Shown here piece by piece: positions 1,316 through 37,404 of a DNA stretch of 37,445 bases. Source of the stretch: a virus. Position 1 is the first letter of the stretch; the number at the start of each line of letters is the position of its first letter. A program made the position numbers and the translations under genes. The stretch lies in the UHGV virus genome UHGV-1374556, one strand, 5' to 3'. A model generated the notes under the pieces. It had not been told where the DNA came from, ran no database searches, and was given only the letters and a program-made list of their open reading frames with translations.

Positions 1316-1331
1316 GTTGCGATATCGCAAC
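1316..1331. promoter_or_regulatory. Palindrome GTTGCGATATCGCAAC, copy 1 of 4
   Basis: Perfect 16-bp palindrome lying 16 nt upstream of the int start codon, just 5' of its RBS GGAAAGGA. Identical copies at 10007, 19785 (14-bp core) and 34997. Confidence 0.7.
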
Positions 1332-1481
1332 TGATTTTGGGTAAAATTAATACGCCCCTTGCCAGGACGTTTCAGGAATGATATAATTTACTTGCTTAAG
1401 GTAATTATATCTTCCGTGGCAGTCCGGTAAGAGAATCTATGCGAAAAGCTCTAGGGGTTTGCGGCTCCTGGGGCTTTCTGC

Positions 1482-2285
1482 TTATTGCTCGGTTGCTATT
1501 AAAGAGTACTTCGCACTTGTACTGATTTCAAAAGTGTAATCGGATTCTAATTTTAAATTACTATAAGAATCCCTTACTATTTCCTTTAAGCGGTCATTTT
1601 TGTCTCTTACGGTCAGACTCCCAATTCCATTTTCTTTGACAACATTATAAACTCCAGATGGAATATCCTTCCCGACCAGATAGTTTCCTGGAGTAAAGCT
1701 AAATGCTTCTGGTTGCGATTCCGATTCTGTATCACTCTTCATGCTCTCAGTGGTTTCGCTTTCGATTGGAACAAGCATCTCGTTTTCAGATTCAGAAGTT
1801 TCTCCATTTTTTTCATCCCAAATATGAGAAAGCACAGAGTTTCTATCCTTATCACACCAAATAGTAATCATAGGGACGTCCCCAACATATTGTGTCCATA
1901 GGACATGGTCATAATCAAACCAATCTTGGTTCATTAATTCATTTATTTGGCTTCCAACAACTTTGGAATCGGCACCTGATAAGGTGGTTATATACAGTAA
2001 CTGCTGCCCATCAACGCGCACCCCCGTCACGGTACTCCCTATAAGATTCGAATATGCATAGTCAGCAACCTTGTCAAAGGAAGTCTCTGCTTGATTAGGG
2101 GAAGACGAGCTATCCTCGTTGGATTGCTGTAATACTGCCGCGTATTCAGATTCCATTTCTGTATTTTTTTCTTTTAGAATATTATATTCCGATTTTAGCC
2201 TATCGTATTCATTCTGCGAAACCCCATTGCTACATGCTGTTAATGAAAGCACAAGCAGGGGGAAAATAATAAAGCGCTTTTTCAT
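1482..2285 (-). CDS. Lipoprotein moron between int and the repressor module (Ltp-like superinfection-exclusion candidate)
   Basis: 267 aa. Signal peptide plus lipobox LSLTAC-S. AT-rich relative to neighbours. AGGAGG RBS upstream of the ATG. Confidence 0.7.
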   Translation of the reverse strand: MKKRFIIFPLLVLSLTACSNGVSQNEYDRLKSEYNILKEKNTEMESEYAAVLQQSNEDSSSSPNQAETSFDKVADYAYSNLIGSTVTGVRVDGQQLLYITTLSGADSKVVGSQINELMNQDWFDYDHVLWTQYVGDVPMITIWCDKDRNSVLSHIWDEKNGETSESENEMLVPIESETTESMKSDTESESQPEAFSFTPGNYLVGKDIPSGVYNVVKENGIGSLTVRDKNDRLKEIVRDSYSNLKLESDYTFEISTSAKYSLIATEQ

Positions 2286-2333
2286 AAAACCTCCTTAGTT
2301 TTGGTTATGCCATTTTTATTAAAAAGCAATAAG

Positions 2334-2771
2334 CTATTTTAATCTTAAATCAAGTAATTCTTCTGGATACCCAGTACATTTGCAGAACTGATTCTTTGTG
2401 CACCCGACATAGCATTTTAGTAGCTCATTATCAATAAGGAGATGGGCTGCAAATATATTTGCCTGTTTTTCTATCCGCGAGGTCAAAAGAAGTGTACTAT
2501 TCTTCATAAACGCACAGTTTTCTTTTGGATGCATTACTGCATGACCAAGTTCGTGCGCCAGAACAACTCGGAGAAATATTGCATCATCGATGTCTGAATT
2601 GAGAAAGATGTATTTCCTTCGTTTTAGCAATTTGTAAAATCCGGCAACAACATCTTCTAACGGTGCCCTGATTATGGTCACACCAAGATAATCCGCAATT
2701 TCTTCCGGGTCACCAGTTTTATATTTTCTTTTTAGATATGAAACAAGTTTTTTTATTTTTTTACTATTCAA
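2334..2771 (-). CDS. immA: ImmA/IrrE-family metallopeptidase (HEXXH), anti-repressor protease
   Basis: 145 aa. LAHELGHAVMH zinc-metalloprotease motif. Sits directly downstream of an XRE repressor as in ImmR/ImmA pairs. TTG start with AGGTGGTGA RBS. Confidence 0.75.
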   Translation of the reverse strand: MNSKKIKKLVSYLKRKYKTGDPEEIADYLGVTIIRAPLEDVVAGFYKLLKRRKYIFLNSDIDDAIFLRVVLAHELGHAVMHPKENCAFMKNSTLLLTSRIEKQANIFAAHLLIDNELLKCYVGCTKNQFCKCTGYPEELLDLRLK

Positions 2772-2795
2772 AGTCCATTCACCACCTAGACCCAG

Positions 2796-3236
2796 TTATT
2801 CCTTTTCAGGTCTGGGCTTATGCTTGTATGGTCGATAGGTTTCTTTGTTCTTAACTTTTGCATCTTCCAACGCTATTTCTATTGCATTCCTCAATAAATC
2901 TACTTTGTTTTTAGGGATTGGTTTGTCATTGTAATATAGAGGGCTATCCTCTCCATCTGCTATTTCCTTCATTATTCGGTCAAGATCTTTTGCAATATTA
3001 CGTTTGTCCCGGGCAGTTAATCCTGGAGCCATCTCTTTGGGTTCATTTTTCCCCGTCATTAAATAATCCACACTCACACCAAAATAATCAGCTATCTTTT
3101 TCATATTGCCACTTTTGGGAGTACTTCGGCCACGTTTCCAGTCGCTGAGCGTAGATTGTGTGACTCCTGTTTCTTTTGACACTTTGTAGGCCGTTACGCC
3201 ATTCTTTTGTAATAATTGTTCAAATATCTCATACAT
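2796..3236 (-). CDS. immR: XRE-family HTH repressor (CI/ImmR-like)
   Basis: HTH motif YKVSKETGVTQSTLSDWKRG. Trimmed to the MYEIFEQ start at 3236, which has a GGTGG RBS. No S24 peptidase domain, consistent with an ImmA-dependent repressor. Confidence 0.8.
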   Translation of the reverse strand: MYEIFEQLLQKNGVTAYKVSKETGVTQSTLSDWKRGRSTPKSGNMKKIADYFGVSVDYLMTGKNEPKEMAPGLTARDKRNIAKDLDRIMKEIADGEDSPLYYNDKPIPKNKVDLLRNAIEIALEDAKVKNKETYRPYKHKPRPEKE

Positions 3237-3291
3237 AATTGTCCACCTTTCACAAACCGCAGACAATACTATGAAAAACCGAAAAATTCTA

Positions 3292-3320
3292 TTGACATTA
3301 TCGGAAATGCATAGTATAGT
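3292..3320 (+). promoter_or_regulatory. Sigma-A-like promoter, TTGACA-17-TATAGT, for the rightward early operon
   Basis: TTGACA at 3292-3297, 17-nt spacer, TATAGT at 3315-3320, within the divergent int/cro-type intergenic region. Confidence 0.55.
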
Positions 3321-3412
3321 ATGAGCATACAAAGGAATTACGTTGTAAAACCTTTGCACACTGCGGAAATGTTATTTACTTCGTCTGATAAACAAAGCAT
3401 ATCACATTTCCG
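3302..3412. promoter_or_regulatory. Three copies of the operator-like half-site CGGAAATG
   Basis: CGGAAATG at 3302-3309 and 3364-3371, with the inverted copy CATTTCCG at 3405-3412. All lie between the divergent repressor and cro-like genes, overlapping the promoter. Confidence 0.5.
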
Positions 3413-3447
3413 TAGCATTTTCAATATTTATATTAAAGAAAGGTGGT

Positions 3448-3666
3448 GTGGTTTTGTACAAAAAATTTGCAGCTTTATTAGAGAAAAGTAACAAAACATC
3501 TTATCAAGTATCTAAAGAGACAGGAATTGCTCAATCTGTTTTATCTGACTGGAAAAATGGCCGTAGCAAACCAAAGTTTGACAAATTGTTAATCCTGGCA
3601 AAATACTTCGGCGTACCAGTAGAGTACTTTGCGGATAGTGAAAAGACAGAAAAGGAGGATACATAA
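3448..3666 (+). CDS. XRE-family HTH, Cro-like regulator
   Basis: 72 aa. HTH YQVSKETGIAQSVLSDWKNG. Divergent from the repressor. GTG/TTG-region start with AAAGGTGG RBS. Confidence 0.8.
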   Translation: MVLYKKFAALLEKSNKTSYQVSKETGIAQSVLSDWKNGRSKPKFDKLLILAKYFGVPVEYFADSEKTEKEDT

Positions 3667-3667
3667 T

Positions 3668-4255
3668 ATGAGTGGTATTTTTAATGAGGTTTTTACAGGA
3701 AGAGACACATCGAGGCTGACCCCGATTGAAATTGCATTGGGGATTGACAACGAAGGGAGAACAACGGCAACAAAGCTCTACGATTTTCTGGAGCTGAACC
3801 CCAGCAACTATTCCAAGTGGTTCCGTAAGAACATTCTTGAAAATGAGTTTGCGGAAGAAACAGTGGATTATTTCCCATTCGTACTCCGGTACGAGTCGCT
3901 GACAGGCGAAAAGGAGAGGCAGGATGCCAAACTCACGGCCCATTTTGCAAAGAAGCTTTCGATGGTTCAGAAGAATCAGAAAGGTGATGCAGCCAGGAAC
4001 TACTTTGTAGGCGTGGAAAATGGGGCTAAAAATCTGATATCGCAATACAAAGCGTTATCACCAACTGAACGCCCAGGAGAGGTGGCTAACCTTATAAAGG
4101 TGATTACCCGGATAATGGAGAAACAGGGTTCTGCACCTTGTAAGGTCTCTGAGAACGCACAACTTATCTGCGCCCAGTACGGAATTACCTTGTCCTCTGA
4201 TTTTGTGAAGGTTCCAGAATATGAGCAAATGAGCCTTGATGATTTTATGAAATAG
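3668..4255 (+). CDS. Phage antirepressor-like protein (KilAC/Ant-type C-terminal domain)
   Basis: Start at MSGIFNEV with AGGAGG RBS, spacing 9. Motif ARNYFVGVENG is typical of the KilAC/antirepressor domain. The family call is tentative. Confidence 0.55.
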   Translation: MSGIFNEVFTGRDTSRLTPIEIALGIDNEGRTTATKLYDFLELNPSNYSKWFRKNILENEFAEETVDYFPFVLRYESLTGEKERQDAKLTAHFAKKLSMVQKNQKGDAARNYFVGVENGAKNLISQYKALSPTERPGEVANLIKVITRIMEKQGSAPCKVSENAQLICAQYGITLSSDFVKVPEYEQMSLDDFMK

Positions 4256-4269
4256 GAAGGAGAAAGAGA

Positions 4270-4707
4270 ATGAAAGATTCAAAAATTATTGCAAAACGGT
4301 TATTGATGGATTTGGGAAAAGATGAGTTAAAAGATGGGAAATCAGTAGCGGAAGATATTAGGGTAATGGCAGAGGAGAGTGAAAGTTTTGAAAATGCTGT
4401 GTTCGAAGTTGGAGCCATGAAAATTGCAAAAGATTGCGCAAAACTTTGCAGTAAGGGTGGGGACACGGCAGATAAAGCAGCAGTATGTTTAGATGAAATA
4501 GGATATGACAAAAAGAAAATTAAGAGCCTCAAAAACTGGTGCGTATGTGAAATTGATGGAGGTTATCTTGAGGAAGGTGAGCAGTACATTAGTATGACTT
4601 TCTACAACCCAGCTACTCAAAAGTATGTGGAGTTGGAGTTTGATTCAGATGGATGTGTATTTATTACTGCTCCACACGATACGAAAACGAAGGGAGAAAG
4701 AGGATGA
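4270..4707 (+). CDS. Hypothetical protein whose C-terminal about 60 aa are paralogous to ORF 5593-5820
   Basis: 145 aa with AAGGAG RBS. The C-terminus GEQYISMTFYNPATQKYVELEFDSDG aligns with GERFIQLSFCNPYSSKLAQLRFYEDG of the 75-aa ORF. Confidence 0.6.
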   Translation: MKDSKIIAKRLLMDLGKDELKDGKSVAEDIRVMAEESESFENAVFEVGAMKIAKDCAKLCSKGGDTADKAAVCLDEIGYDKKKIKSLKNWCVCEIDGGYLEEGEQYISMTFYNPATQKYVELEFDSDGCVFITAPHDTKTKGERG

Positions 4708-5564
4708 ATGAGATTATAAAAGTAGGAAACCACAATGTGGTGGAAATCCAGTGGAAGGGACGGAAGGTCATTACCACGGCTCAGCTGGCGGAGGTATATG
4801 AGACCGATGCCAATAACGTGCAAGCTAATTTTGGAAGGAATCAGGAACGTTTTAAAGAGGGAGTACATTATTTTTTGTTGAAGGGGCAGGAGTTGAGGGA
4901 ATTTAAAGACTACCTGACTGATAGTCAGTTAGTTGCTAAGAATGCGCCCTTGCTCTACCTCTGGACTCACCGTGGCGCCAGCCGTCACTGTAAAATACTG
5001 GACACTGAGAAAGCATGGGAGCAGTTCGACAACCTGGAAGAAGCGTATTTTAACCCGCAGTCATCTATTAACATGGATGACCTGGACCCTGATACACAGC
5101 TAATGAATCTGCTTGTTAGAAATATTTCAAAACAGGAGTTGGAGCAGAAGCGACAACGAGAAGAGCAGAAGAGACAGGCTGAAAAATTGGAACAGCTGGA
5201 TGATAGAATTGACGCTATCAAGGAAGTGGTTTCGCTACGTCCAAACGCCTGGAGAAAAGATACTGCCAATATTATAAACAAGATGGCGTTGAAGGCCGGG
5301 GGATATGACCACATAAAGCTTATCAGAGATGAATCCTATCGCATCCTGGAAGAGCGGATGCATGTAGCGCTGAATATTCGTCTCACAAATAAGAAAAAGA
5401 CAATGGCGCTCAATAATGTATGCAAGTCTAAACTGGACAAGTTAAACATACTCGATGTAATTGCGGATGATCCCAAATTGATTGAGGGGTATATATCAGT
5501 TATTAAGGATATGGCAATTAAATATGGAATTGCAGATGCGAAAGACATTTTAAACGAAAACTAA
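4704..5564 (+). CDS. ORF6N-domain phage protein (antirepressor-family N-terminal domain)
   Basis: Motif VVEIQWKGRKVITTAQLAEVYETDANNVQANFGRNQERFKEGVHYF matches the ORF6N pattern. ATGA overlap with the upstream gene. GGGAGAAAGAGG RBS. Confidence 0.6.
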   Translation: MNEIIKVGNHNVVEIQWKGRKVITTAQLAEVYETDANNVQANFGRNQERFKEGVHYFLLKGQELREFKDYLTDSQLVAKNAPLLYLWTHRGASRHCKILDTEKAWEQFDNLEEAYFNPQSSINMDDLDPDTQLMNLLVRNISKQELEQKRQREEQKRQAEKLEQLDDRIDAIKEVVSLRPNAWRKDTANIINKMALKAGGYDHIKLIRDESYRILEERMHVALNIRLTNKKKTMALNNVCKSKLDKLNILDVIADDPKLIEGYISVIKDMAIKYGIADAKDILNEN

Positions 5565-5592
5565 AATAAAAAAGTATGGAGGAATAGAAAAT

Positions 5593-5820
5593 ATGGTCAT
5601 TACATTGAATAGAATCAAATTTAGCAGGGATGAGTTAAAAGCTGTTGAGGGATGCTGTGTGCGTGGAGTTGTTGATAACGTAGATGATGACGGGGAGAGA
5701 TTTATACAATTAAGCTTTTGCAATCCATACTCCTCAAAACTTGCTCAGTTAAGATTTTATGAGGATGGAACTATGTGTATAGGCACATCCATTAGCGGGA
5801 GTGAAAGAGAAGGGGTGTGA
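5593..5820 (+). CDS. Hypothetical small protein, paralogue of the 4270-4707 C-terminal domain
   Basis: 75 aa with GGAGG RBS. Shares the CxV...GE.FI.LSF.NP...K...L.F..DG motif. Confidence 0.55.
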   Translation: MVITLNRIKFSRDELKAVEGCCVRGVVDNVDDDGERFIQLSFCNPYSSKLAQLRFYEDGTMCIGTSISGSEREGV

Positions 5821-5824
5821 TGTT

Positions 5825-6049
5825 ATGGCAAGACTATGGCTGAGCCCGGAGGAGGCAGCCCCTGTCCTGGGAATGAAACCAGCAAAGATTCGGGATTACA
5901 TGCGCAGGGATATCTTGGACCTGGGGCTGGCAATCCCACCGGAGAAAACCGGAAAGACCATGTGGGAGTTCCGGATATACCCTGCGAAGATTGAAAAGAT
6001 AATTGGTGAGAAACTGGAGCGTCCAGAGGAAGGGGAGAAACAGGAATGA
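5825..6049 (+). CDS. Small HTH DNA-binding protein (excisionase/AlpA-like)
   Basis: N-terminus MARLWLSPEEAAPVLGMKPAKIRDYMRR is typical of Xis/MerR-like HTH proteins. GAAGGGGTG RBS. Confidence 0.5.
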   Translation: MARLWLSPEEAAPVLGMKPAKIRDYMRRDILDLGLAIPPEKTGKTMWEFRIYPAKIEKIIGEKLERPEEGEKQE

Positions 6050-6168
6050 GACGGAACAATGAGCCGGATAAGATGCAACGGGCGTTGGCAATCATCACAA
6101 TGGTGATGACGATGTTGTATATGTACAAATGCTGGCAGGTGGACCAGCTGGTAAGAATGATATAGGAG
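6046..6168 (+). CDS. Small hydrophobic peptide (40 aa), translationally coupled to the upstream gene
   Basis: MRRNNEPDKMQRALAIITMVMTMLYMYKCWQVDQLVRMI. ATGA overlap with the previous stop. GGGGAG RBS 10 nt upstream. Below the six-frame track size cutoff. Confidence 0.35.
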
Positions 6169-6179
6169 AGGTAAGGACA

Positions 6180-7313
6180 ATGGAGAAAGAAACCAAAGAA
6201 GTGGTATTGAGCCATATTAAGGATGGGACCTATGTTCCGGATATGCTGTTTGACATACAGAAACTGATGGCCCAGGCCGGGATGGAGCTATATGCAAAGC
6301 CATGCTGTGACCGGATTGAGGCGGCAGGCCTGGTGGACAAAGTACATGTCCTGCGGATTCAGCCATCCCCATGGAAATTACAGGTGGATGCCGATGGCAT
6401 GGAGGCCTGCCGTGAGGTATTGGAGGCGTACCTACAGCCTGAATATCTGAATGAAATGTATGAAATCATCAAGAGGTGCCGTGACTGGACCATATCTGTC
6501 AACAACATGCTCTATTCTTTACGGAAGATAAGCAGTAAAGACCTTAAGGCTGAGCTTATGGACAACTTTGTATATAAGGTAGGAGAGGACGACGAGCAGG
6601 ACGTCACGGAGCTGTTTAAAGCGGAGTTAGAGAACCGGAAGCTCCTGGGCAGGATGCGTAAGCTGACAAGGAGGACTGCCTTTGTAATCCAGATGTTAAG
6701 GATGTTCCCCGGTCCGCTCCAGATACTGGTACCATTCATCAGGGAATCCTGGAAGAGCTGGAATACAGCAGGAATTGTGCCACATGTAGAGAGCAATGGG
6801 AAATATACTAAGGCCCTGAGACGCTTTACGGATATCCATGGCGGTACCCGCTGCATAGAAAGACTACAGGGAGTTGACCTGGAACGATACATATTCCTGG
6901 CGGTCAAGGCCTATGGAAAAGAGAATCATGCAGAGTTTAACCACACAAAAGCCCATAAGTCCTGCCTGGAGATAGAGAACAGATACCAGGAGTTAAAGCA
7001 GGTCATGGAGACCATAGGCAGGCTGACACCTTTGGAGCTGCTGAGGATGTTCCCGGTCAAGAAGGAATACGACGGAAAGAATTGGGGAACAAAGGATTAC
7101 TACTATACCATGGACCGATTAAGGCGCCTGCCGGCAGACAAGCCCATAGGGGACGCCCAGGACGTTGCAGTTCTCCTATGGGACTATCAGAACTGGGACC
7201 TGGCGGAACTATTATTTCAATGGCAGAACGTTCTGGGAGATTTGCACATCTATTGCAATGATTCTGGGCCACATGATGAACTTCATGACAGGATGATGCG
7301 GAGGGCGGTGTAA
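6180..7313 (+). CDS. Hypothetical early protein of unknown function with internal LRMFP repeat
   Basis: 377 aa from MEKETKEV with GGAGAGG RBS. No motif recognisable to me. LRMFPGP and LLRMFPVK recur about 120 aa apart. Confidence 0.65.
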   Translation: MEKETKEVVLSHIKDGTYVPDMLFDIQKLMAQAGMELYAKPCCDRIEAAGLVDKVHVLRIQPSPWKLQVDADGMEACREVLEAYLQPEYLNEMYEIIKRCRDWTISVNNMLYSLRKISSKDLKAELMDNFVYKVGEDDEQDVTELFKAELENRKLLGRMRKLTRRTAFVIQMLRMFPGPLQILVPFIRESWKSWNTAGIVPHVESNGKYTKALRRFTDIHGGTRCIERLQGVDLERYIFLAVKAYGKENHAEFNHTKAHKSCLEIENRYQELKQVMETIGRLTPLELLRMFPVKKEYDGKNWGTKDYYYTMDRLRRLPADKPIGDAQDVAVLLWDYQNWDLAELLFQWQNVLGDLHIYCNDSGPHDELHDRMMRRAV

Positions 7314-7335
7314 ACGGATGGGGAGAAGCAGAGCA

Positions 7336-7494
7336 ATGAAGCCGACCCGGAACCAGAAGGCACTGATGAGTAAGACTGGTCTGGTGGTAAAGAACTGGCT
7401 GGTGTTGGAAGAAACAAAGACGGAGCTGAGGCTTGTGAGCCGCGGCGCCGGCGTGAGGCGCACAATAAAAAAGTCCCTAACTAACGCCAATTAG
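7336..7494 (+). CDS. Possible small basic protein (52 aa)
   Basis: GGGGAG RBS 10 nt upstream of the ATG. Ends inside the stem-loop at 7473-7502. Weak support. Confidence 0.25.
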   Translation: MKPTRNQKALMSKTGLVVKNWLVLEETKTELRLVSRGAGVRRTIKKSLTNAN

Positions 7495-7502
7495 TTAAGG
7501 AC
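7473..7502. terminator. Stem-loop with 12-bp stem, GTCCCTAACTAA-CGCCAA-TTAGTTAAGGAC
   Basis: Near-perfect inverted repeat with one mismatch. Preceded by AAAAAA on the plus strand, equivalent to a T-run on the minus strand. Confidence 0.4.
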
Positions 7503-7587
7503 AAGTATAGGCCTGGAGGCGCTATACCAAAGTTCAACCACTTATAAGTATAGCACTTCTGAGCCGGAAAGGGAAGATGGTAGATTT

Positions 7588-8067
7588 ATGATTTATCCGA
7601 ATTTAATAGCAGAGCATCAAGCTTTTTGGTGCCTGGAAGCAATGGCCAGGGGCGCAGAGGTAACACCGGAACTGATGGGCGCAGTGTTAGAGGGAAAAGA
7701 GCCACTAATGGCTGATGAGGCATTACGTCTGGCACAGTATATGATGGTCAAGACCAGCTATTTATTCAGCACGTCATTGTCCGTACTGAATAGAAAGAGC
7801 AACCGGCATCGACGCTGGATGGCTGGATTGGAACGAAATCTGTACGAGATATATGAGGCTGGCAAGAAGGGAGATTACTGGGTCCTGGACTTTTTACGCG
7901 CAAATAAACGAATCAGGTACGCGAATATGGATCTGAGTTTTCGAAACGGCCAACAAGTAACATATGCGGAATATAAGGCTGTAAAGACGGATATAGAGTG
8001 GGCCTTGTGTCATATCCGTGAGAAACAGCATAAGCCGCGTGGCCTGGAAGGAAAGGTGGCCGTATGA
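7588..8067 (+). CDS. Hypothetical protein
   Basis: 159-aa ORF in the co-oriented early operon. Confidence 0.5.
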   Translation: MIYPNLIAEHQAFWCLEAMARGAEVTPELMGAVLEGKEPLMADEALRLAQYMMVKTSYLFSTSLSVLNRKSNRHRRWMAGLERNLYEIYEAGKKGDYWVLDFLRANKRIRYANMDLSFRNGQQVTYAEYKAVKTDIEWALCHIREKQHKPRGLEGKVAV

Positions 8068-8264
8068 TGCTGCATGAAGATTTAGTTCAGGAATTGGTTA
8101 TGGAACTATATAAGCTGGATGTTGATGAGTTGTTGATATTCAAGGGAGATGAAGCGGAGGAACTGGAAGCACAAGGTATTCCCAAAGAGATACGAGACCG
8201 TTGCCTTCGAATCGTTGATATAGTGATACAAGTGAAGCAGGAAGAGATGAGTAACGCAGTATGA
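8064..8264 (+). CDS. Hypothetical protein
   Basis: 66 aa. AAAGGTGG RBS. ATGA overlap with the upstream gene. Confidence 0.5.
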   Translation: MMLHEDLVQELVMELYKLDVDELLIFKGDEAEELEAQGIPKEIRDRCLRIVDIVIQVKQEEMSNAV

Positions 8265-8431
8265 CATTTCCAATAGATGAGCAGGTATTTATAGATAGGT
8301 GGTTATCAGCGTTAAATGAGCCAGATGAAGGGGATAGGGAACAGGCAGAGGCCACGGTGCAGACAATCACCCGGGCATATTATGCAGGTTTGGAAGATGG
8401 AAGGAAGGAGACAGCAGCATGCAGAGAATGA
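8261..8431 (+). CDS. Hypothetical small protein (56 aa)
   Basis: ATGA overlap with the upstream stop. Weak RBS. Confidence 0.3.
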   Translation: MTFPIDEQVFIDRWLSALNEPDEGDREQAEATVQTITRAYYAGLEDGRKETAACRE

Positions 8432-8667
8432 TGTGTATATCAGTGGAGCAGCACAACCGGATGATTGAAAGCTATGACAAAGCCATGGAAGAGTTACAGG
8501 AGCTTAGAGAGCTGCTACAGATGACCCCGGGCGACGTGGACGAAGTTGCACCGATGCAACCAAAGGGCCGTCTTAGGGACATTATGGATACCCTTATGTC
8601 GGCTAACGATGAAACCTTGAAGGAAGTTTACTATTTCGTCCAAGGTTATGCAGGGAGGACATATTGA
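8419..8667 (+). CDS. Hypothetical protein
   Basis: 82 aa. AAGGAG RBS, spacing 8. Confidence 0.55.
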   Translation: MQRMMCISVEQHNRMIESYDKAMEELQELRELLQMTPGDVDEVAPMQPKGRLRDIMDTLMSANDETLKEVYYFVQGYAGRTY

Positions 8668-8668
8668 T

Positions 8669-8770
8669 ATGGATGATTGCAAACAGAGGATTATTGGATT
8701 AATAAACGGCGCACAGGATGATGAGAAGCTGGAACTGATACTTCGGTTTATCAGAAGGCTGTTAAATTAA
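8669..8770 (+). CDS. Hypothetical small protein (33 aa)
   Basis: GGAGG RBS about 10 nt upstream. Tight packing with its neighbours. Confidence 0.3.
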   Translation: MDDCKQRIIGLINGAQDDEKLELILRFIRRLLN

Positions 8771-8783
8771 GGAGGCGAAGAGC

Positions 8784-8951
8784 ATGGAAAGGAACGAAGA
8801 TAACAGGGCATCCATGTATCGGAGGGAGATTTTACGTCTTTTACGGTTTCTGTGGAAACAGCAGGACTTAAGGATGTGGCAGCAGATATACACGGTCATC
8901 CACTGTTTCTGCAATATGAAAGGGGTGGAGAAACATGACGGAAGAAGATAG
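8784..8951 (+). CDS. Hypothetical small protein (55 aa)
   Basis: GGAGG RBS, spacing 8. Confidence 0.4.
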   Translation: MERNEDNRASMYRREILRLLRFLWKQQDLRMWQQIYTVIHCFCNMKGVEKHDGRR

Positions 8952-9111
8952 AAAAGGAGTTGCCCGGGAATGCAGGAAAAGCATTATGAGCGCATTAAAG
9001 GATGTTGATGACCTTAAATTCCTGCGGCGAATCTACATAAGCATATTGGTTGCTAAAAATGGAAAGGTGGGTGACTGCCATGACAAACGAGCAGCTTGTA
9101 GCACAGATTAA
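8935..9111 (+). CDS. Hypothetical small protein (58 aa)
   Basis: GGTGGAG RBS. Overlaps the sigma-factor start by 32 nt. Confidence 0.3.
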   Translation: MTEEDRKGVARECRKSIMSALKDVDDLKFLRRIYISILVAKNGKVGDCHDKRAACSTD

Positions 9112-10045
9112 GGCCGGAGAGGATGTACAGAAGAACATGGAACAGCTTTATCTGCAGGTGAGGGACTACATTCATTCTGTGGCCATGAAGTACTGTAACA
9201 GCGGAGAGGTGGAGGACCTGGAGCAGGAAGGGTACCTGGCTCTGCATGCAGCCATTGAAAAGTATGACCCTGGCCAGGGTTTTAAATTCCTGACTTATGC
9301 AGCGTATTACATCCGGCAGGGGATGCAGCGTTACCTGCAGGTGAATGGGAGCTGCCTGCGTCTGCCGGTCCATTGCCAGGAGAAGATACAGAGGTACAAC
9401 CGGTTTTGTCAATCGTTCAAGATGGAGCATGGCAGGAAACCCACGGATACTGAGATTGCAGCAGGGCTGGACCTTATTTTGGAGCAGGTATGGGAAATCA
9501 AGGAGAATGCCCGGGCAATTCACCTGGGCAGCCTGGATGCTCCAGTTATGGGGATAGAAGGCGGTGAGGATGCCACCGTGGGAGAATTGACTGGAGATGA
9601 TACGGATGTAGAGGGAGAGGTTGTAGAACAGATCCAGGACGGGCAGCTTAAGGATATATTGTGGGGATGTGTGGATGCTCTCCCGGACCGGCAGCCGGAG
9701 GTGATACGGAAACGGTATCAGCAGGACATGACCCTGGCTGAAATCGGAAAAACATATGGAGTCACTGCAGAGGCAGTAAGGCAGACACATGCGAAAGCAT
9801 TGCGGGAATTACGGAAACCCAGAGCCGCCAAGCAGCTGCGCCCATTTCTTCCGGGAGTGGGAATCTATGAAGGCGGCATTGATAGCTTTAACAGGACGTG
9901 GACCAGCAGTACCGAAAGGGCAGCACTCAGTATGGCTGAGTCCATGGAGATAGAGGAACGAAGGCGGGAGAAACACATGGAGCTGCTGGATAAAATAAGG
10001 GCGAAAGTTGCGATATCGCAACAGAAGGGAGAACAACATGAATAA
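9080..10045 (+). CDS. Phage-encoded sigma-70 family RNA polymerase sigma factor with a roughly 70-aa C-terminal extension
   Basis: Region 2 EDLEQEGYLALHAAIEKYDPGQGFKFLTYAAYYIRQGMQRYL. Region 4 MTLAEIGKTYGVTAEAVRQTHAKALRELRK. Start at MTNEQ with AAAGGTGGGTG RBS. Confidence 0.85.
   Translation: MTNEQLVAQIKAGEDVQKNMEQLYLQVRDYIHSVAMKYCNSGEVEDLEQEGYLALHAAIEKYDPGQGFKFLTYAAYYIRQGMQRYLQVNGSCLRLPVHCQEKIQRYNRFCQSFKMEHGRKPTDTEIAAGLDLILEQVWEIKENARAIHLGSLDAPVMGIEGGEDATVGELTGDDTDVEGEVVEQIQDGQLKDILWGCVDALPDRQPEVIRKRYQQDMTLAEIGKTYGVTAEAVRQTHAKALRELRKPRAAKQLRPFLPGVGIYEGGIDSFNRTWTSSTERAALSMAESMEIEERRREKHMELLDKIRAKVAISQQKGEQHE
10007..10022. promoter_or_regulatory. Palindrome GTTGCGATATCGCAAC, copy 2 of 4
   Basis: Lies inside the 3' end of the sigma-factor gene, encoding VAISQQ. 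It is 15 nt upstream of the next start codon (10038), directly 5' of its RBS GAAGGGAGA. Confidence 0.7.
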
Positions 10046-10403
10046 AGAAGAGATAAAGAAAATTGTGGTGGACTATATAAACAAGAATGAATCGGCCAGC
10101 TATGCGGAACTGCAGTGGCTGTTTGAGGAGAAGGGCTATGACTACAAAGGAGAACTGCTGTCCTGTTCGGATGTCTGCGAACATGTGGTGTTCTGGAGTG
10201 GCTGGAATGCGGAAGCCTTTGACCTGATGACGGAGCTGTTGCATGAGGAAGTGGTCCACCGGGAGCCGGCACATCCCTTGCGGTATCTTTTAGATGGGGC
10301 CGGGCTTACCCTGCCAAAAGTACAGCGCGCGGTGCAGTATAAGACGGATCACTGGGCGCCGGTGGTGTTTATAAAGGGGCAAGATTCGAGGGCGGCAGAA
10401 TGA
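10038..10403 (+). CDS. Hypothetical protein
   Basis: Start at MNKEEIKK with GGGAGA RBS. 121 aa. Confidence 0.55.
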   Translation: MNKEEIKKIVVDYINKNESASYAELQWLFEEKGYDYKGELLSCSDVCEHVVFWSGWNAEAFDLMTELLHEEVVHREPAHPLRYLLDGAGLTLPKVQRAVQYKTDHWAPVVFIKGQDSRAAE

Positions 10404-10597
10404 GGTGTAAATTTTGTGGGGCTGACATGAGGGCCGTTACCTATAATTCGGATGGATATAGTGAAAGGTTGGTTGTTCTGGATGATTACAACCCCGATTC
10501 CGGCCGATATGAAATGATTGGAAAGGTTATATACTGCCCTGAATGTGGAAACCTGCAGGTGGAATTACAAAGAACGATGGAGTTGTGTAAAAAGTAG
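10400..10597 (+). CDS. Small zinc-ribbon protein
   Basis: 65 aa with CxxC...CxxC (CKFCG...CPECG). ATGA overlap with the upstream gene. Confidence 0.5.
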   Translation: MRCKFCGADMRAVTYNSDGYSERLVVLDDYNPDSGRYEMIGKVIYCPECGNLQVELQRTMELCKK

Positions 10598-10623
10598 TTA
10601 AGATTTTAAGGAGGCGTAATAGC

Positions 10624-10953
10624 ATGTATGCAATTGAAGAAAAAAGAAGAGTTCTGGAAGATGGAACGGAAATCGTTACTTATAGTCGTGATATCTATAA
10701 TGCCAACGTATTAGAAGTGGAAGCTGGTACAACCGGTTATAAGGGAGGTGACACCGGTCACGGTGGACGTACCTATTTCCGAATTAAGGATGCCGGAAGT
10801 ACAGACATTAATGTGCGTACCATTACTGATAGATATAGATATTCTGGTTTCGAGGTCACCCTTGGCGGGGACTGCGAATTGGAAACCATCATTCAGGCAT
10901 TAAAATTTATTACCAAGGTTCTGGAGGATGGAGCAAACGAGGTACACGACTGA
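10624..10953 (+). CDS. Hypothetical protein
   Basis: 109 aa. AAGGAGG RBS, spacing 9. Confidence 0.55.
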   Translation: MYAIEEKRRVLEDGTEIVTYSRDIYNANVLEVEAGTTGYKGGDTGHGGRTYFRIKDAGSTDINVRTITDRYRYSGFEVTLGGDCELETIIQALKFITKVLEDGANEVHD

Positions 10954-10960
10954 TATTTTA

Positions 10961-11032
10961 AATTTGAGAGGTACCCTGAAATTTTGAGAGACCTTTTCAG
11001 GGGTGCGAAAATTTTCACACCCCTTTGAGAAC
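10961..11032. promoter_or_regulatory. Three TTTGAGA repeats in helical phase plus an embedded 26-bp palindrome
   Basis: TTTGAGAG at 10964 and 10984, TTTGAGAA at 11025, spaced 20 and 41 bp. Palindrome AGGGGTGCGAAAATTTTCACACCCCT at 10999-11024 with one mismatch pair. Confidence 0.45.
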
Positions 11033-11135
11033 AATGTAACGGCGCAAGCCTTTACATACAGCAGCTGGTTAATTCAAACCCAACACATGCTTATAATATG
11101 TCACGGTATGAATGCATGAGGTGTTGGACTCACAG

Positions 11136-16209: not shown

Positions 16210-16388
16210 AAGTGCACAGTCAATCTGTGTTATAATGTATGAAAAGAAGTGGGCCTACCGGAAACGGCGGGCCTTCTTCCTTTTCCTCTTGGGTGAAATT
16301 CAGACCAGCGAGGAATCCATTCCAGTGCGGGGGCTTTTCTTTTGCCGAAATTTGGTGTAAGATATAAAAAAGCGTGGAGGGTGTATTT

Positions 16389-16887: not shown

Positions 16888-16916
16888 GCGGGTTGCTTTT
16901 GCGCAGCCCTTTTTTA
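16888..16916 (+). terminator. Rho-independent terminator
   Basis: Stem GGGTTGC / GCAGCCC (16890-16896 and 16903-16909) followed by TTTTTT. Confidence 0.7.
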
Positions 16917-19784: not shown

Positions 19785-19798
19785 TTGCGATATCGCAA
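19785..19798. promoter_or_regulatory. Palindrome TTGCGATATCGCAA, copy 3 of 4 (14-bp core)
   Basis: Starts the base after the terL stop codon. Lies 21 nt upstream of the portal ATG, 5' of the AGGAG RBS. Confidence 0.7.
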
Positions 19799-34996: not shown

Positions 34997-35026
34997 GTTG
35001 CGATATCGCAACTTGTGACGTCACAA
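34997..35026. promoter_or_regulatory. Palindrome GTTGCGATATCGCAAC (copy 4 of 4) abutting a second perfect palindrome TTGTGACGTCACAA
   Basis: 16-bp palindrome at 34997-35012 is directly followed by a 14-bp palindrome at 35013-35026 in the holin-endolysin intergenic region. Confidence 0.7.
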
Positions 35027-35034
35027 CTTTTCAT

Positions 35035-35067
35035 GGCTCAGGGATGTCCCTGGGCCTTATTTTTTTT
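35035..35067 (+). terminator. Rho-independent terminator between holin and endolysin
   Basis: GGCTCAGGGATGTCCCTGGGCC stem-loop followed by TTATTTTTTTT. Confidence 0.65.
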
Positions 35068-35083
35068 GATGGAGGAAAACACT

Positions 35084-37392: not shown

Positions 37393-37404
37393 TAAAGTCA
37401 CAAA
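37393..37404. repeat. attR core candidate TAAAGTCACAAA
   Basis: Exact 12-bp match to 158-169. Confidence 0.6.

Follow-up and report, generated by a model that had tools for sequence, protein, structure and literature searches.

A predicted alternative sigma factor with a conserved C-terminal motif in phages and satellite-like islands of Lachnospiraceae

INTRODUCTION

What does a phage-encoded sigma factor do with a long C-terminal tail, and why do the codons of this tail hold a perfect palindrome? These questions are raised by UHGV virus genome UHGV-1374556, in which a stretch of 37,445 nucleotides (nt), analysed as a whole and called the window below, contains a gene for a 321-amino-acid (aa) sigma-70 family protein. 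How transcription is controlled in phages of the Lachnospiraceae, which are abundant in the gut, has scarcely been studied. Our analysis suggests that this protein is probably a functional alternative sigma, which would redirect host RNA polymerase (RNAP) to promoters of the element, and that a short motif in its tail would dock an invariant, probably host, partner; we hold this reading with fair rather than firm confidence.

RESULTS

Architecture of the sigma factor

The gene and the domains of its product are:

9080..10045, plus strand: sigma-70 family gene, 321 aa plus stop, ATG start, with a Shine-Dalgarno-like AAGGTGG 5′ of the ATG
9146..9340, plus strand: region 2 (aa 23–87), Pfam PF04542 Sigma70_r2, 54.7 bits, 9e-15
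9380..9601, plus strand: region 3 (aa 101–174), Pfam PF04539 Sigma70_r3, 36.8 bits, 4.1e-09
9674..9817, plus strand: region 4 (aa 199–246), Pfam PF04545 Sigma70_r4, 57.4 bits, 1e-15

The start at ATG 9080 is favoured over the longest form in the list of open reading frames (ORFs; 9050..10045, TTG start), because homologues share the N-terminus MTNEQLV. Independent gene callers predicted the identical 321-aa product from ATG 9080 on metagenome contigs, which are the only source of the exact window protein. All three Pfam scores exceed the gathering scores, confirming the region 2 and region 4 motifs that had been recognised from the letters alone and adding region 3. Membership in the sigma-70 superfamily is supported by model TIGR02937 (99.4 bits; cut-off 42.9). 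Residues 2–305 also match PHROG 351 ‘RNA polymerase sigma factor’ (3e-55), a clustering family with no tested function behind its label.

In a phmmer search of the PDB, query residues 5/30–257 matched the C-terminal two thirds of SigA/RpoD chains through their last residue, and the top Foldseek structures were SigA and sigma-70 holoenzymes. The protein begins at the equivalent of SigA residue ∼119, and region 1.1 and the N-terminal ∼120 aa are absent. AlphaFold2, run on an 89-sequence alignment, gave predicted local distance difference test (pLDDT) values of >90 across all three sigma domains, with disorder at residues 150–175, the acidic region 3.2 linker (SLDAPVMGIEGGEDATVGEL). The core-binding segment of region 2 is EDLEQEGYLAL, and its L47, Q49, E50 and G51, together with S151, L152 and P155 of region 3.2, are invariant or nearly so in homologue alignments. 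By these features, the window protein is predicted to be a complete sigma with regions 1.2-like, 2, 3 and 4, lacking region 1.1.

Promoter-reading segments combine retained and altered residues. The −10 recognition and melting segment aligns as FKFLTYAAYYIRQGMQR in the window sigma versus FKFSTYATWWIRQAITR in host SigA. Region 3.0 (PVHCQE) has kept the His and Glu that read extended −10 elements, and the recognition helix of region 4 reads VTAEAVRQ versus VTRERIRQ in SigA. Contact positions are named here by their E. coli sigma-70 numbers, mapped through PDB and host SigA alignments. By that numbering, the equivalents of Y430, Q437, H455, E458, E585, R588 and Q589 are retained; W433/W434 are replaced by YY, T440 by Q, and both R584 and R586 by A. 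From these contacts we infer that the sigma recognises extended −10 promoters but differs in its specificity at −12 and in the distal −35 element.

A conserved motif in the C-terminal tail

Beyond region 4, two features were delimited:

9851..10042, plus strand: C-terminal extension (aa 258–321, 64 aa), after the SigA-like end ...KQLRPFLP; SigA alignments stop at aa 257
9887..9928, plus strand: signature motif FNRTWTSSTERAAL (aa 270–283), from the translation and family alignments

An extension of roughly 70 aa after region 4 had been proposed by the sequence-only reading. The extension is real; its length had been slightly overestimated, because the C-terminus of SigA chains aligns at query residue 257 and leaves aa 258–321. 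The tail is shared by the closest 120 relatives, which have lengths of ∼320 aa and align with 98% query coverage.

The consensus of the motif is F-N-x-T-W-T-S-S-T-E-R-x-A-L. In >100 loci, with sigma identities down to 33%, ...LRPFLPE is followed by (I)Y..A(L/Y).G.G(V)..F-N-x-T-W-T-S-(S/E)-(T/V)-E-R-x-A-(L/I/M), in a regular expression that fixed some positions and with the motif itself as one of the two scan patterns for locus collection. The homologue alignments were not selected on the motif and are free of that bias; in the 89-sequence one, F270, S276 and E279 are invariant and G266, T273 and W274 are at least 90% conserved. The 96 distinct DNA versions of the motif use every synonymous codon of Thr, Ser and Glu, and such free variation of synonymous sites indicates that the constraint acts at the protein level.

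Across the same proteins, contact positions of regions 3.0 and 4.2 vary widely, and the motif is better conserved than these. Promoter specificity thus seems to have diversified while the motif stayed fixed, which is the pattern expected of a contact with something invariant. Moreover, the variant TWTSEVERE goes with Mediterraneibacter/Extibacter hosts, in islands of two distinct architectures, which hints at a host partner. Two AlphaFold2 runs left residues 258–278 unplaced (pLDDT <50), consistent with a partner-dependent element, and the run on the 89-sequence alignment gave a confident long helix at 277–320. The tail is in two parts, a linker with the motif and a helix (the final ∼35 aa) specific to the closest clade; in most relatives the protein ends 2–10 residues past the motif.

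We found no convincing tail in another kind of protein in a search of 1.84 billion representative proteins with a 44-aa tail query. Its nine weak matches comprised seven short stretches of 89–304-aa proteins, of which two were C-terminal (in proteins of 290 and 304 aa), and two multi-stretch matches in 874- and 1104-aa proteins that were taken as spurious. Among 50,697 records of deposited phages none has the tail: no match extended past residue 271 or exceeded 39% identity. The motif was not found in the papers searched. As criteria of the family we propose MTNE(Q/E)LV, EDLEQEG in region 2.2, ...LRPFLPE and the motif, which the window sigma shares with >100 relatives. The tail is a family signature with an undescribed C-terminal motif, rather than an idiosyncratic appendage.

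Proposed function of the sigma and its tail

According to our reading, once the repressor is lifted the sigma would be transcribed within the early rightward operon, as its position and the lack of a predicted terminator suggest. The protein would then bind host core RNAP, in keeping with its retained core-binding, region 3.2 and region 4 features. The polymerase would be directed to element-specific, probably extended −10 promoters, with −12 and −35 readout unlike that of host SigA. Beyond ...LRPFLP, the flexible linker and the motif would form a short docking element for an invariant partner. Since the point of attachment adjoins region 4, −35 DNA and the beta-flap, this partner is most likely a surface of host RNAP or another conserved host factor.

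Several points weigh against this reading. Every functional statement made here is drawn from sequence. The replacement of W433/W434 is typical of group 3 sigmas but makes competence for promoter melting a prediction. No promoter set for the sigma was identified within the window, and the sole strong TTGC-type extended −10 promoter (1359–1387) lies beside the integrase gene and points away from the phage genes. In locus L012 (7612–8553; loci carry our own numbers), the TWTSSTER motif is missing from a sigma that is 53% identical to that of the window and has an equivalent phage context; hence, not all lineages need the motif. This natural deletion variant retains the terminal helix and the palindrome, by which the two parts of the tail are separable. 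No Pfam domain covers the tail, a 38-sequence profile found no PDB relative of it (best E 1.8), and no neighbouring gene that could encode its partner is conserved across the family. Finally, the window also encodes a canonical late activator, which clouds the part of the 321-aa sigma in the phage programme:

15790–16209: small sigma-like activator of 139 aa with region 4 only, just 5′ of terS; matches phrog_36 and phrog_248 (‘transcriptional activator’)

The 139-aa protein occupies the canonical late-activator slot and is probably the real late-gene switch of the phage; hence, the 321-aa sigma need not be one.

The tail might instead be a cis-acting regulatory module, which folds onto region 2 or 4 or binds an anti-sigma-like protein and so keeps the sigma off in the absence of a signal. 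C-terminal extensions act as regulatory modules in some groups of extracytoplasmic function (ECF) sigmas. Here too, the extension comes directly after region 4 through a flexible linker, the motif is amphipathic as well as strongly conserved, and a small coupled gene of no assigned function follows the sigma gene in the window clade. However, AlphaFold2 with a deep alignment gave no intramolecular docking of residues 258–278, the family-wide absence of a conserved partner gene applies here as well, and the early ends of most relatives leave little space for a folded inhibitory domain. We regard a cis-regulatory tail as rather unlikely.

Distribution of the family

Two database searches returned 1721 and 711 matches to the window sigma. 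Sixty viral and 80 genomic loci were collected, all from Lachnospiraceae-type genomes, with integrases, repressors, primases and capsid genes in the flanks. Named relatives are all Lachnospiraceae, for example Enterocloster, Lacrimispora, Hungatella and Blautia.

Neighbour-gene clustering and Pfam-annotated contigs gave three settings. In the first, islands of ∼9–10 kb carry integrase, repressor, cro-like, primase, scaffold (cluster c6) and capsid (cluster c4, Pfam Phage_capsid_4) genes with the sigma gene last; the capsid gene adjoins the sigma gene in at least 25 of 107 loci. Genes for terminase, portal and tail are absent from the islands, which for this reason resemble phage satellites. 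The L061 island (1991–10969, Enterocloster asparagiformis) has host genes on both sides, the L010 island (1513–11119) lies inside the major-capsid gene of a prophage with a 14-bp duplication (CCCATGGACATTGA), and the L022 island (1777–11119) is inserted just after a capsid gene. Islands of the second setting carry Phage_rep_org_N, DnaB, small genes and the sigma gene, with the integrase gene downstream. The third setting comprises full phages. Here the sigma gene belongs to the early operon in the window clade and L012, and in L013, L044 and L070–76 it closely follows a leader with which the late region begins. Thus, on the genomes collected, the family appears restricted to Lachnospiraceae phages and phage-satellite-like islands; in the literature we found no description of a sigma in Lachnospiraceae satellites.

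A conserved leader RNA in relatives

The alignment upstream of the scaffold gene contains a promoter, a structured RNA and a terminator in series. The promoter is a near-consensus extended −10 type, TTGC(A/G)-N17-TGnTATAAT. In the structured RNA, GUACC(C/G)C and G(G/U)AAGCC border a hairpin, and the terminator is a long hairpin, GGCG(C/U)GGGAA...UUCC(C/U)GCGCC, followed by a U-run. Covariation occurs in 12 of the 22 pairs of the fold (model R1), and no Rfam family matched. The covariance model matches about 65 of 141 loci, always upstream of the sigma gene on the same strand, at a median distance of 1.7 kb (54 loci; 18 nt in L091 and L136), and the sigma gene is often among the first cargo genes of the leader. 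Examples (model R1, alignment A2) are:

L061:7956-8081, leader
L013:8383-8496, leader
L084:8001-8144, leader
L136:9872-9983, leader

A candidate leader in the window itself (10947–11031; 13 bits, E 0.41) was rejected as a chance-level match, and model R1 found none in window-like phages. The leader promoter is not supported as a cognate, autoregulated promoter of the sigma, since it is constant while region 3.0/4.2 contact residues vary freely; in L044-type sigmas the extended −10 His and Glu are lost and the leader promoter is unchanged. Low-GC viral contigs (L046, L047 and L050–L052) encode sigmas of 232–240 aa with an MTNEELV...EDLEQEG N-terminus, a different tail and an R1-type leader upstream. 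As these short, motif-less sigmas also follow such a leader, the leader–sigma pairing seems older than the TWTSSTER motif. Because the leader is absent from the window, occurs without a sigma gene within 4–10 kb (L151, L157 and L158) and shows no covariation with contact residues, we treat it as a separate control element of late operons. It resembles a late leader under antitermination control, apparently undescribed, of Lachnospiraceae phages and satellites.

Two related ideas give leader and sigma a joint role. In the first, the TWTSSTER tail would tether the sigma to transcribing RNAP, a host factor or nascent leader RNA, and the family would be central to a late switch, built on sigma factors, that Lachnospiraceae phages have in common with their capsid-encoding satellites. 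If so, the sigma of a helper such as the window phage would turn on the leader-controlled scaffold–capsid–sigma operon of a satellite, and the satellite's sigma would drive helper late genes, a sigma version of P2/P4 Ogr–Delta cross-activation. We consider this idea improbable. In the second, sigma and leader would form a late-switch module, in which the sigma, perhaps by means of its tail, works through a positive feedback loop at the leader promoter or through terminator suppression on elongating polymerase, and by which satellites reach their helpers. The covarying leader does lie upstream of the sigma gene on the same strand in 54 loci, and it is likewise found with short, distant sigmas that share this type of N-terminus. 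However, the window and all window-like phages lack it, it occurs without a nearby sigma gene and with motif-less sigmas, and its near-consensus promoter does not covary with region 3.0/4.2 residues. A module of this kind is, in our judgement, slightly less probable still.

Class of the sigma and fit to sporulation or defence

Judged by NCBIfam cut-offs, TIGR02937 alone is passed and no named sigma class is reached. RpoD-type models gave 138–143 bits (cut-offs 354–572), the FliA/WhiG model TIGR02479 106.4 (189.6) and the SigB/F/G model TIGR02980 103 (234), which places the protein outside the FliA and sporulation classes. SigE-, SigK- and SigG-specific models were not among the 25 best NCBIfam matches. 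For a direct comparison we used host sigma genes that chanced to be included in related loci: a Lachnospiraceae SigA (374 aa) gave 35% identity (133 bits), two SigF/G-like proteins gave 24–28% (59–61 bits), and a SigE-like protein scored 35 bits. The protein falls outside the group 1 primary sigmas by its scores below cut-off, its lack of region 1.1 and the change of the WW pair to YY, and outside the ECF sigmas (group 4) by its region 3, which is present and well folded (Pfam, AlphaFold2). Schwartz et al. classed phage sigmas by best profile match (PMC9429907), and under that criterion the window sigma is RpoD-like, not sporulation-like. The core thus appears nearest to primary SigA and away from sporulation sigmas, and the link to sporulation sigmas drawn by the sequence-only reading is not supported: homology to that class was rejected on both the profile scores and the direct comparison with SigA and with SigF/G- and SigE-like proteins.

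The sigma might still compete with host sigmas and rewire host transcription, including sporulation. SigF/G-like sigmas of Bacillus phages are documented to alter host sporulation (PMC9429907), and sporulation sigma genes adjoin the loci of some relatives in their hosts. The best-profile criterion argues against such reprogramming of the host, as do SigF/G- and SigE-like similarities of at most half the SigA similarity and the position of the gene in a lytic early operon rather than at a lysogeny-expressed moron position. This explanation appears very unlikely. A defence or exclusion function akin to MzaA of the MZA anti-phage system, suggested by the top NCBIfam and PADLOC match (NF041931), or a decaying non-functional copy is hardly credible: the match covers the generic sigma part alone (profile positions 488–716 of 726; 160.5 bits, where the cut-off is 800), the N-terminal ∼480 aa of MzaA are missing, PADLOC found no other MZA component among seven neighbours, and the ORF is intact, with 97–99% identical copies on many contigs and strong purifying selection family-wide.

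A palindrome in the tail codons

One of four junction palindromes lies within the coding sequence of the extension, as had been noticed from the sequence alone. The copies, to which no strand is assigned, are:

10007..10022: 16-bp perfect palindrome GTTGCGATATCGCAAC, copy 2, in the tail codons, just 5′ of the Shine-Dalgarno of the next gene
1316..1331: copy 1, directly 5′ of the Shine-Dalgarno and start of the integrase gene (minus strand)
19785..19798: copy 3 (14-nt core), at the TerL/portal junction
34997..35026: copy 4 and a second palindrome, TTGTGACGTCACAA, between holin and endolysin

The 14-nt core occurs exactly four times in the window (1317, 10008, 19785 and 34998), against 0.14 expected from shuffles, and >30 copies of the palindrome occur in 2.25 Mb of related loci. 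The near-constant placement is 1–2 nt before a purine-rich Shine-Dalgarno and ∼15 nt before an ATG; genes starting after a copy in the window are the integrase gene, the ORF after the sigma gene and the portal gene. The next, overlapping ORF has its ATG (10038) 15 nt past copy 2. In the sigma frame this copy is read as K-V-A-I-S-Q-Q, where GTT GCG ATA TCG CAA C gives V-A-I-S-Q-(Q). The window clade shares the 16-mer unchanged with L010, L012, L022, L061 and L134, where sigma identities are only 53–61% and flanking codons differ, and a broken palindrome gives an altered peptide, e.g. ...VAKSQQ. Because the 16-mer is fixed while its flanks differ, and its breakage alters the peptide, the end of the sigma seems shaped by a nucleic-acid element, and its terminal codons (V-A-I-S-Q) appear dictated by a separate DNA or RNA element.

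As RNA, the palindrome would form a hairpin of −8.4 kcal/mol; its perfectly conserved sequence favours recognition by a sequence-specific protein. A comparison of presence and absence gave a single weak candidate for this protein, the small-protein cluster c12 (window 8419–8667), confounded by relatedness. An att site was rejected, as the att-like repeats lie elsewhere (158 and 37393) and the L010 and L022 islands have their own 14-bp target duplications elsewhere. A promoter for the window sigma with TTGCGA as −35 was also rejected, since no −10-like hexamer follows at 16–18 nt spacing at any of the four sites. Further copies were seen in L010 (371, 3673 and 10935), L022 (3981 and 10935), L044 (6196), L070–L076, L132 and L134, and the palindrome is sometimes fused to a second one, TTGTGACG(T/C)CACAA. 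Among the papers searched, the string was met once, in an unrelated one.

Prophage context

The window is essentially one complete siphovirus-type prophage of ∼37 kb. A direct repeat, TAAAGTCACAAA, occurs at 158–169 and 37393–37404, with imperfect similarity extending upstream. It probably represents attL/attR, and because these att-like repeats bound it, the ∼37.2-kb prophage would be whole in the window. The early operon of a Clostridia prophage, where the sequence-only reading had put the gene, is borne out by the prophage genes, these repeats and the Lachnospiraceae origin of the named relatives.

Minus-strand genes encode a tyrosine integrase, a 267-aa ORF, an ImmA-like M78 peptidase and an HTH_3 repressor. 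The early rightward operon holds AntA and ORF6N antirepressor-type genes, many small ORFs, the sigma gene, a 121-aa ORF and a DnaB-like helicase gene. A 294-aa ORF preceding the helicase gene has no Pfam match, and its DnaD-like label stems solely from a 42-nt match to a phage gene so annotated. Late genes encode HNH, TerS, TerL, portal, S78 protease, HK97-type capsid, tape measure, tail endopeptidase, holin and an NlpC/P60-like lysin. No terminator-like site was predicted on the plus strand between 3.6 and 10.9 kb, which fits a single early transcript with the sigma gene as an early-operon gene. Directly behind the sigma gene lies:

10038..10403, plus strand: ORF of 121 aa (phrog_7134, no assigned function), overlapping the sigma stop by 8 nt

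This overlap suggests probable translational coupling, and the 121-aa ORF is kept after the sigma gene in L001–L009 and L012.

Other signals were observed in passing. The best sigma-A-like promoter of the first 20 kb (1359–1387, plus strand; TTGCCA-17-TATAAT with TG) lies 28 nt past palindrome copy 1 and is directed away from the integrase gene, and a 15-bp hairpin (1445–1477, plus strand) follows ∼60 nt after it; together, between the integrase gene and the 267-aa ORF, they may mark a small RNA. An extended −10 element, TGTTATAAT (16228–16236), without a −35, is located 3′ of the 139-aa activator gene, and a terminator-like hairpin (16890–16909) one ORF further. Another terminator-like hairpin with a T-run (35036–35068) lies between holin and endolysin, right after the double palindrome, and the endolysin probably starts at ATG 35084, not at GTG 35015.

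DISCUSSION

The near-invariant motif offers an experimental handle, and its partner would reveal how these elements capture host RNAP. Moreover, the family is a practical marker for apparently undescribed small islands with capsid and sigma genes, some of them inside prophages. The leader RNA with its terminator and the 16-bp palindrome, found in phages and islands, are candidate new regulatory elements.

Compared with SigA/RpoD of Firmicutes, the window sigma aligns in regions 1.2-like, 2, 3 and 4 to the last residues (...RKPRAAKQLRPFLP versus ...RHPSRSKRLRDFLV) and retains the extended −10 His and Glu as well as the −35 Glu, Arg and Gln. It differs in its 64-aa C-terminal extension, its occurrence in mobile elements only and its scores far below the RpoD equivalog cut-offs. 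With other phage-encoded sigmas, namely gp28 and gp34 of Bacillus phage SPO1 and the SigF/G-like ones of Bacillota phages such as Fah and W-beta (PMC9429907), it shares the character of a phage-encoded sigma-70 family protein presumed to redirect host RNAP. It differs in not being sporulation-like and in representing a separate family with a signature tail. For the leader of its relatives, the layout is analogous to lambda PR′–tR′.

The tail of T4 gp55 binds the sliding clamp. Like this tail and the C-terminal extensions of ECF sigmas, the tail described here is a short C-terminal element after the promoter-binding part, which would contact a partner or regulate the sigma. However, there is no sequence or fold similarity to them, and the core of the window sigma is group 1/3-like with a region 3, unlike ECF sigmas and gp55. 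P4 Delta and the operon control of Staphylococcus aureus pathogenicity islands (SaPI) and phage-inducible chromosomal islands (PICI) are cases of satellite transcription factors acting on helper late genes. Many sigmas of our family similarly end ∼9–10-kb islands with repressor, primase, scaffold and capsid genes; in contrast, the regulators of those satellites are not sigma factors, and the window sigma resides in a full phage.

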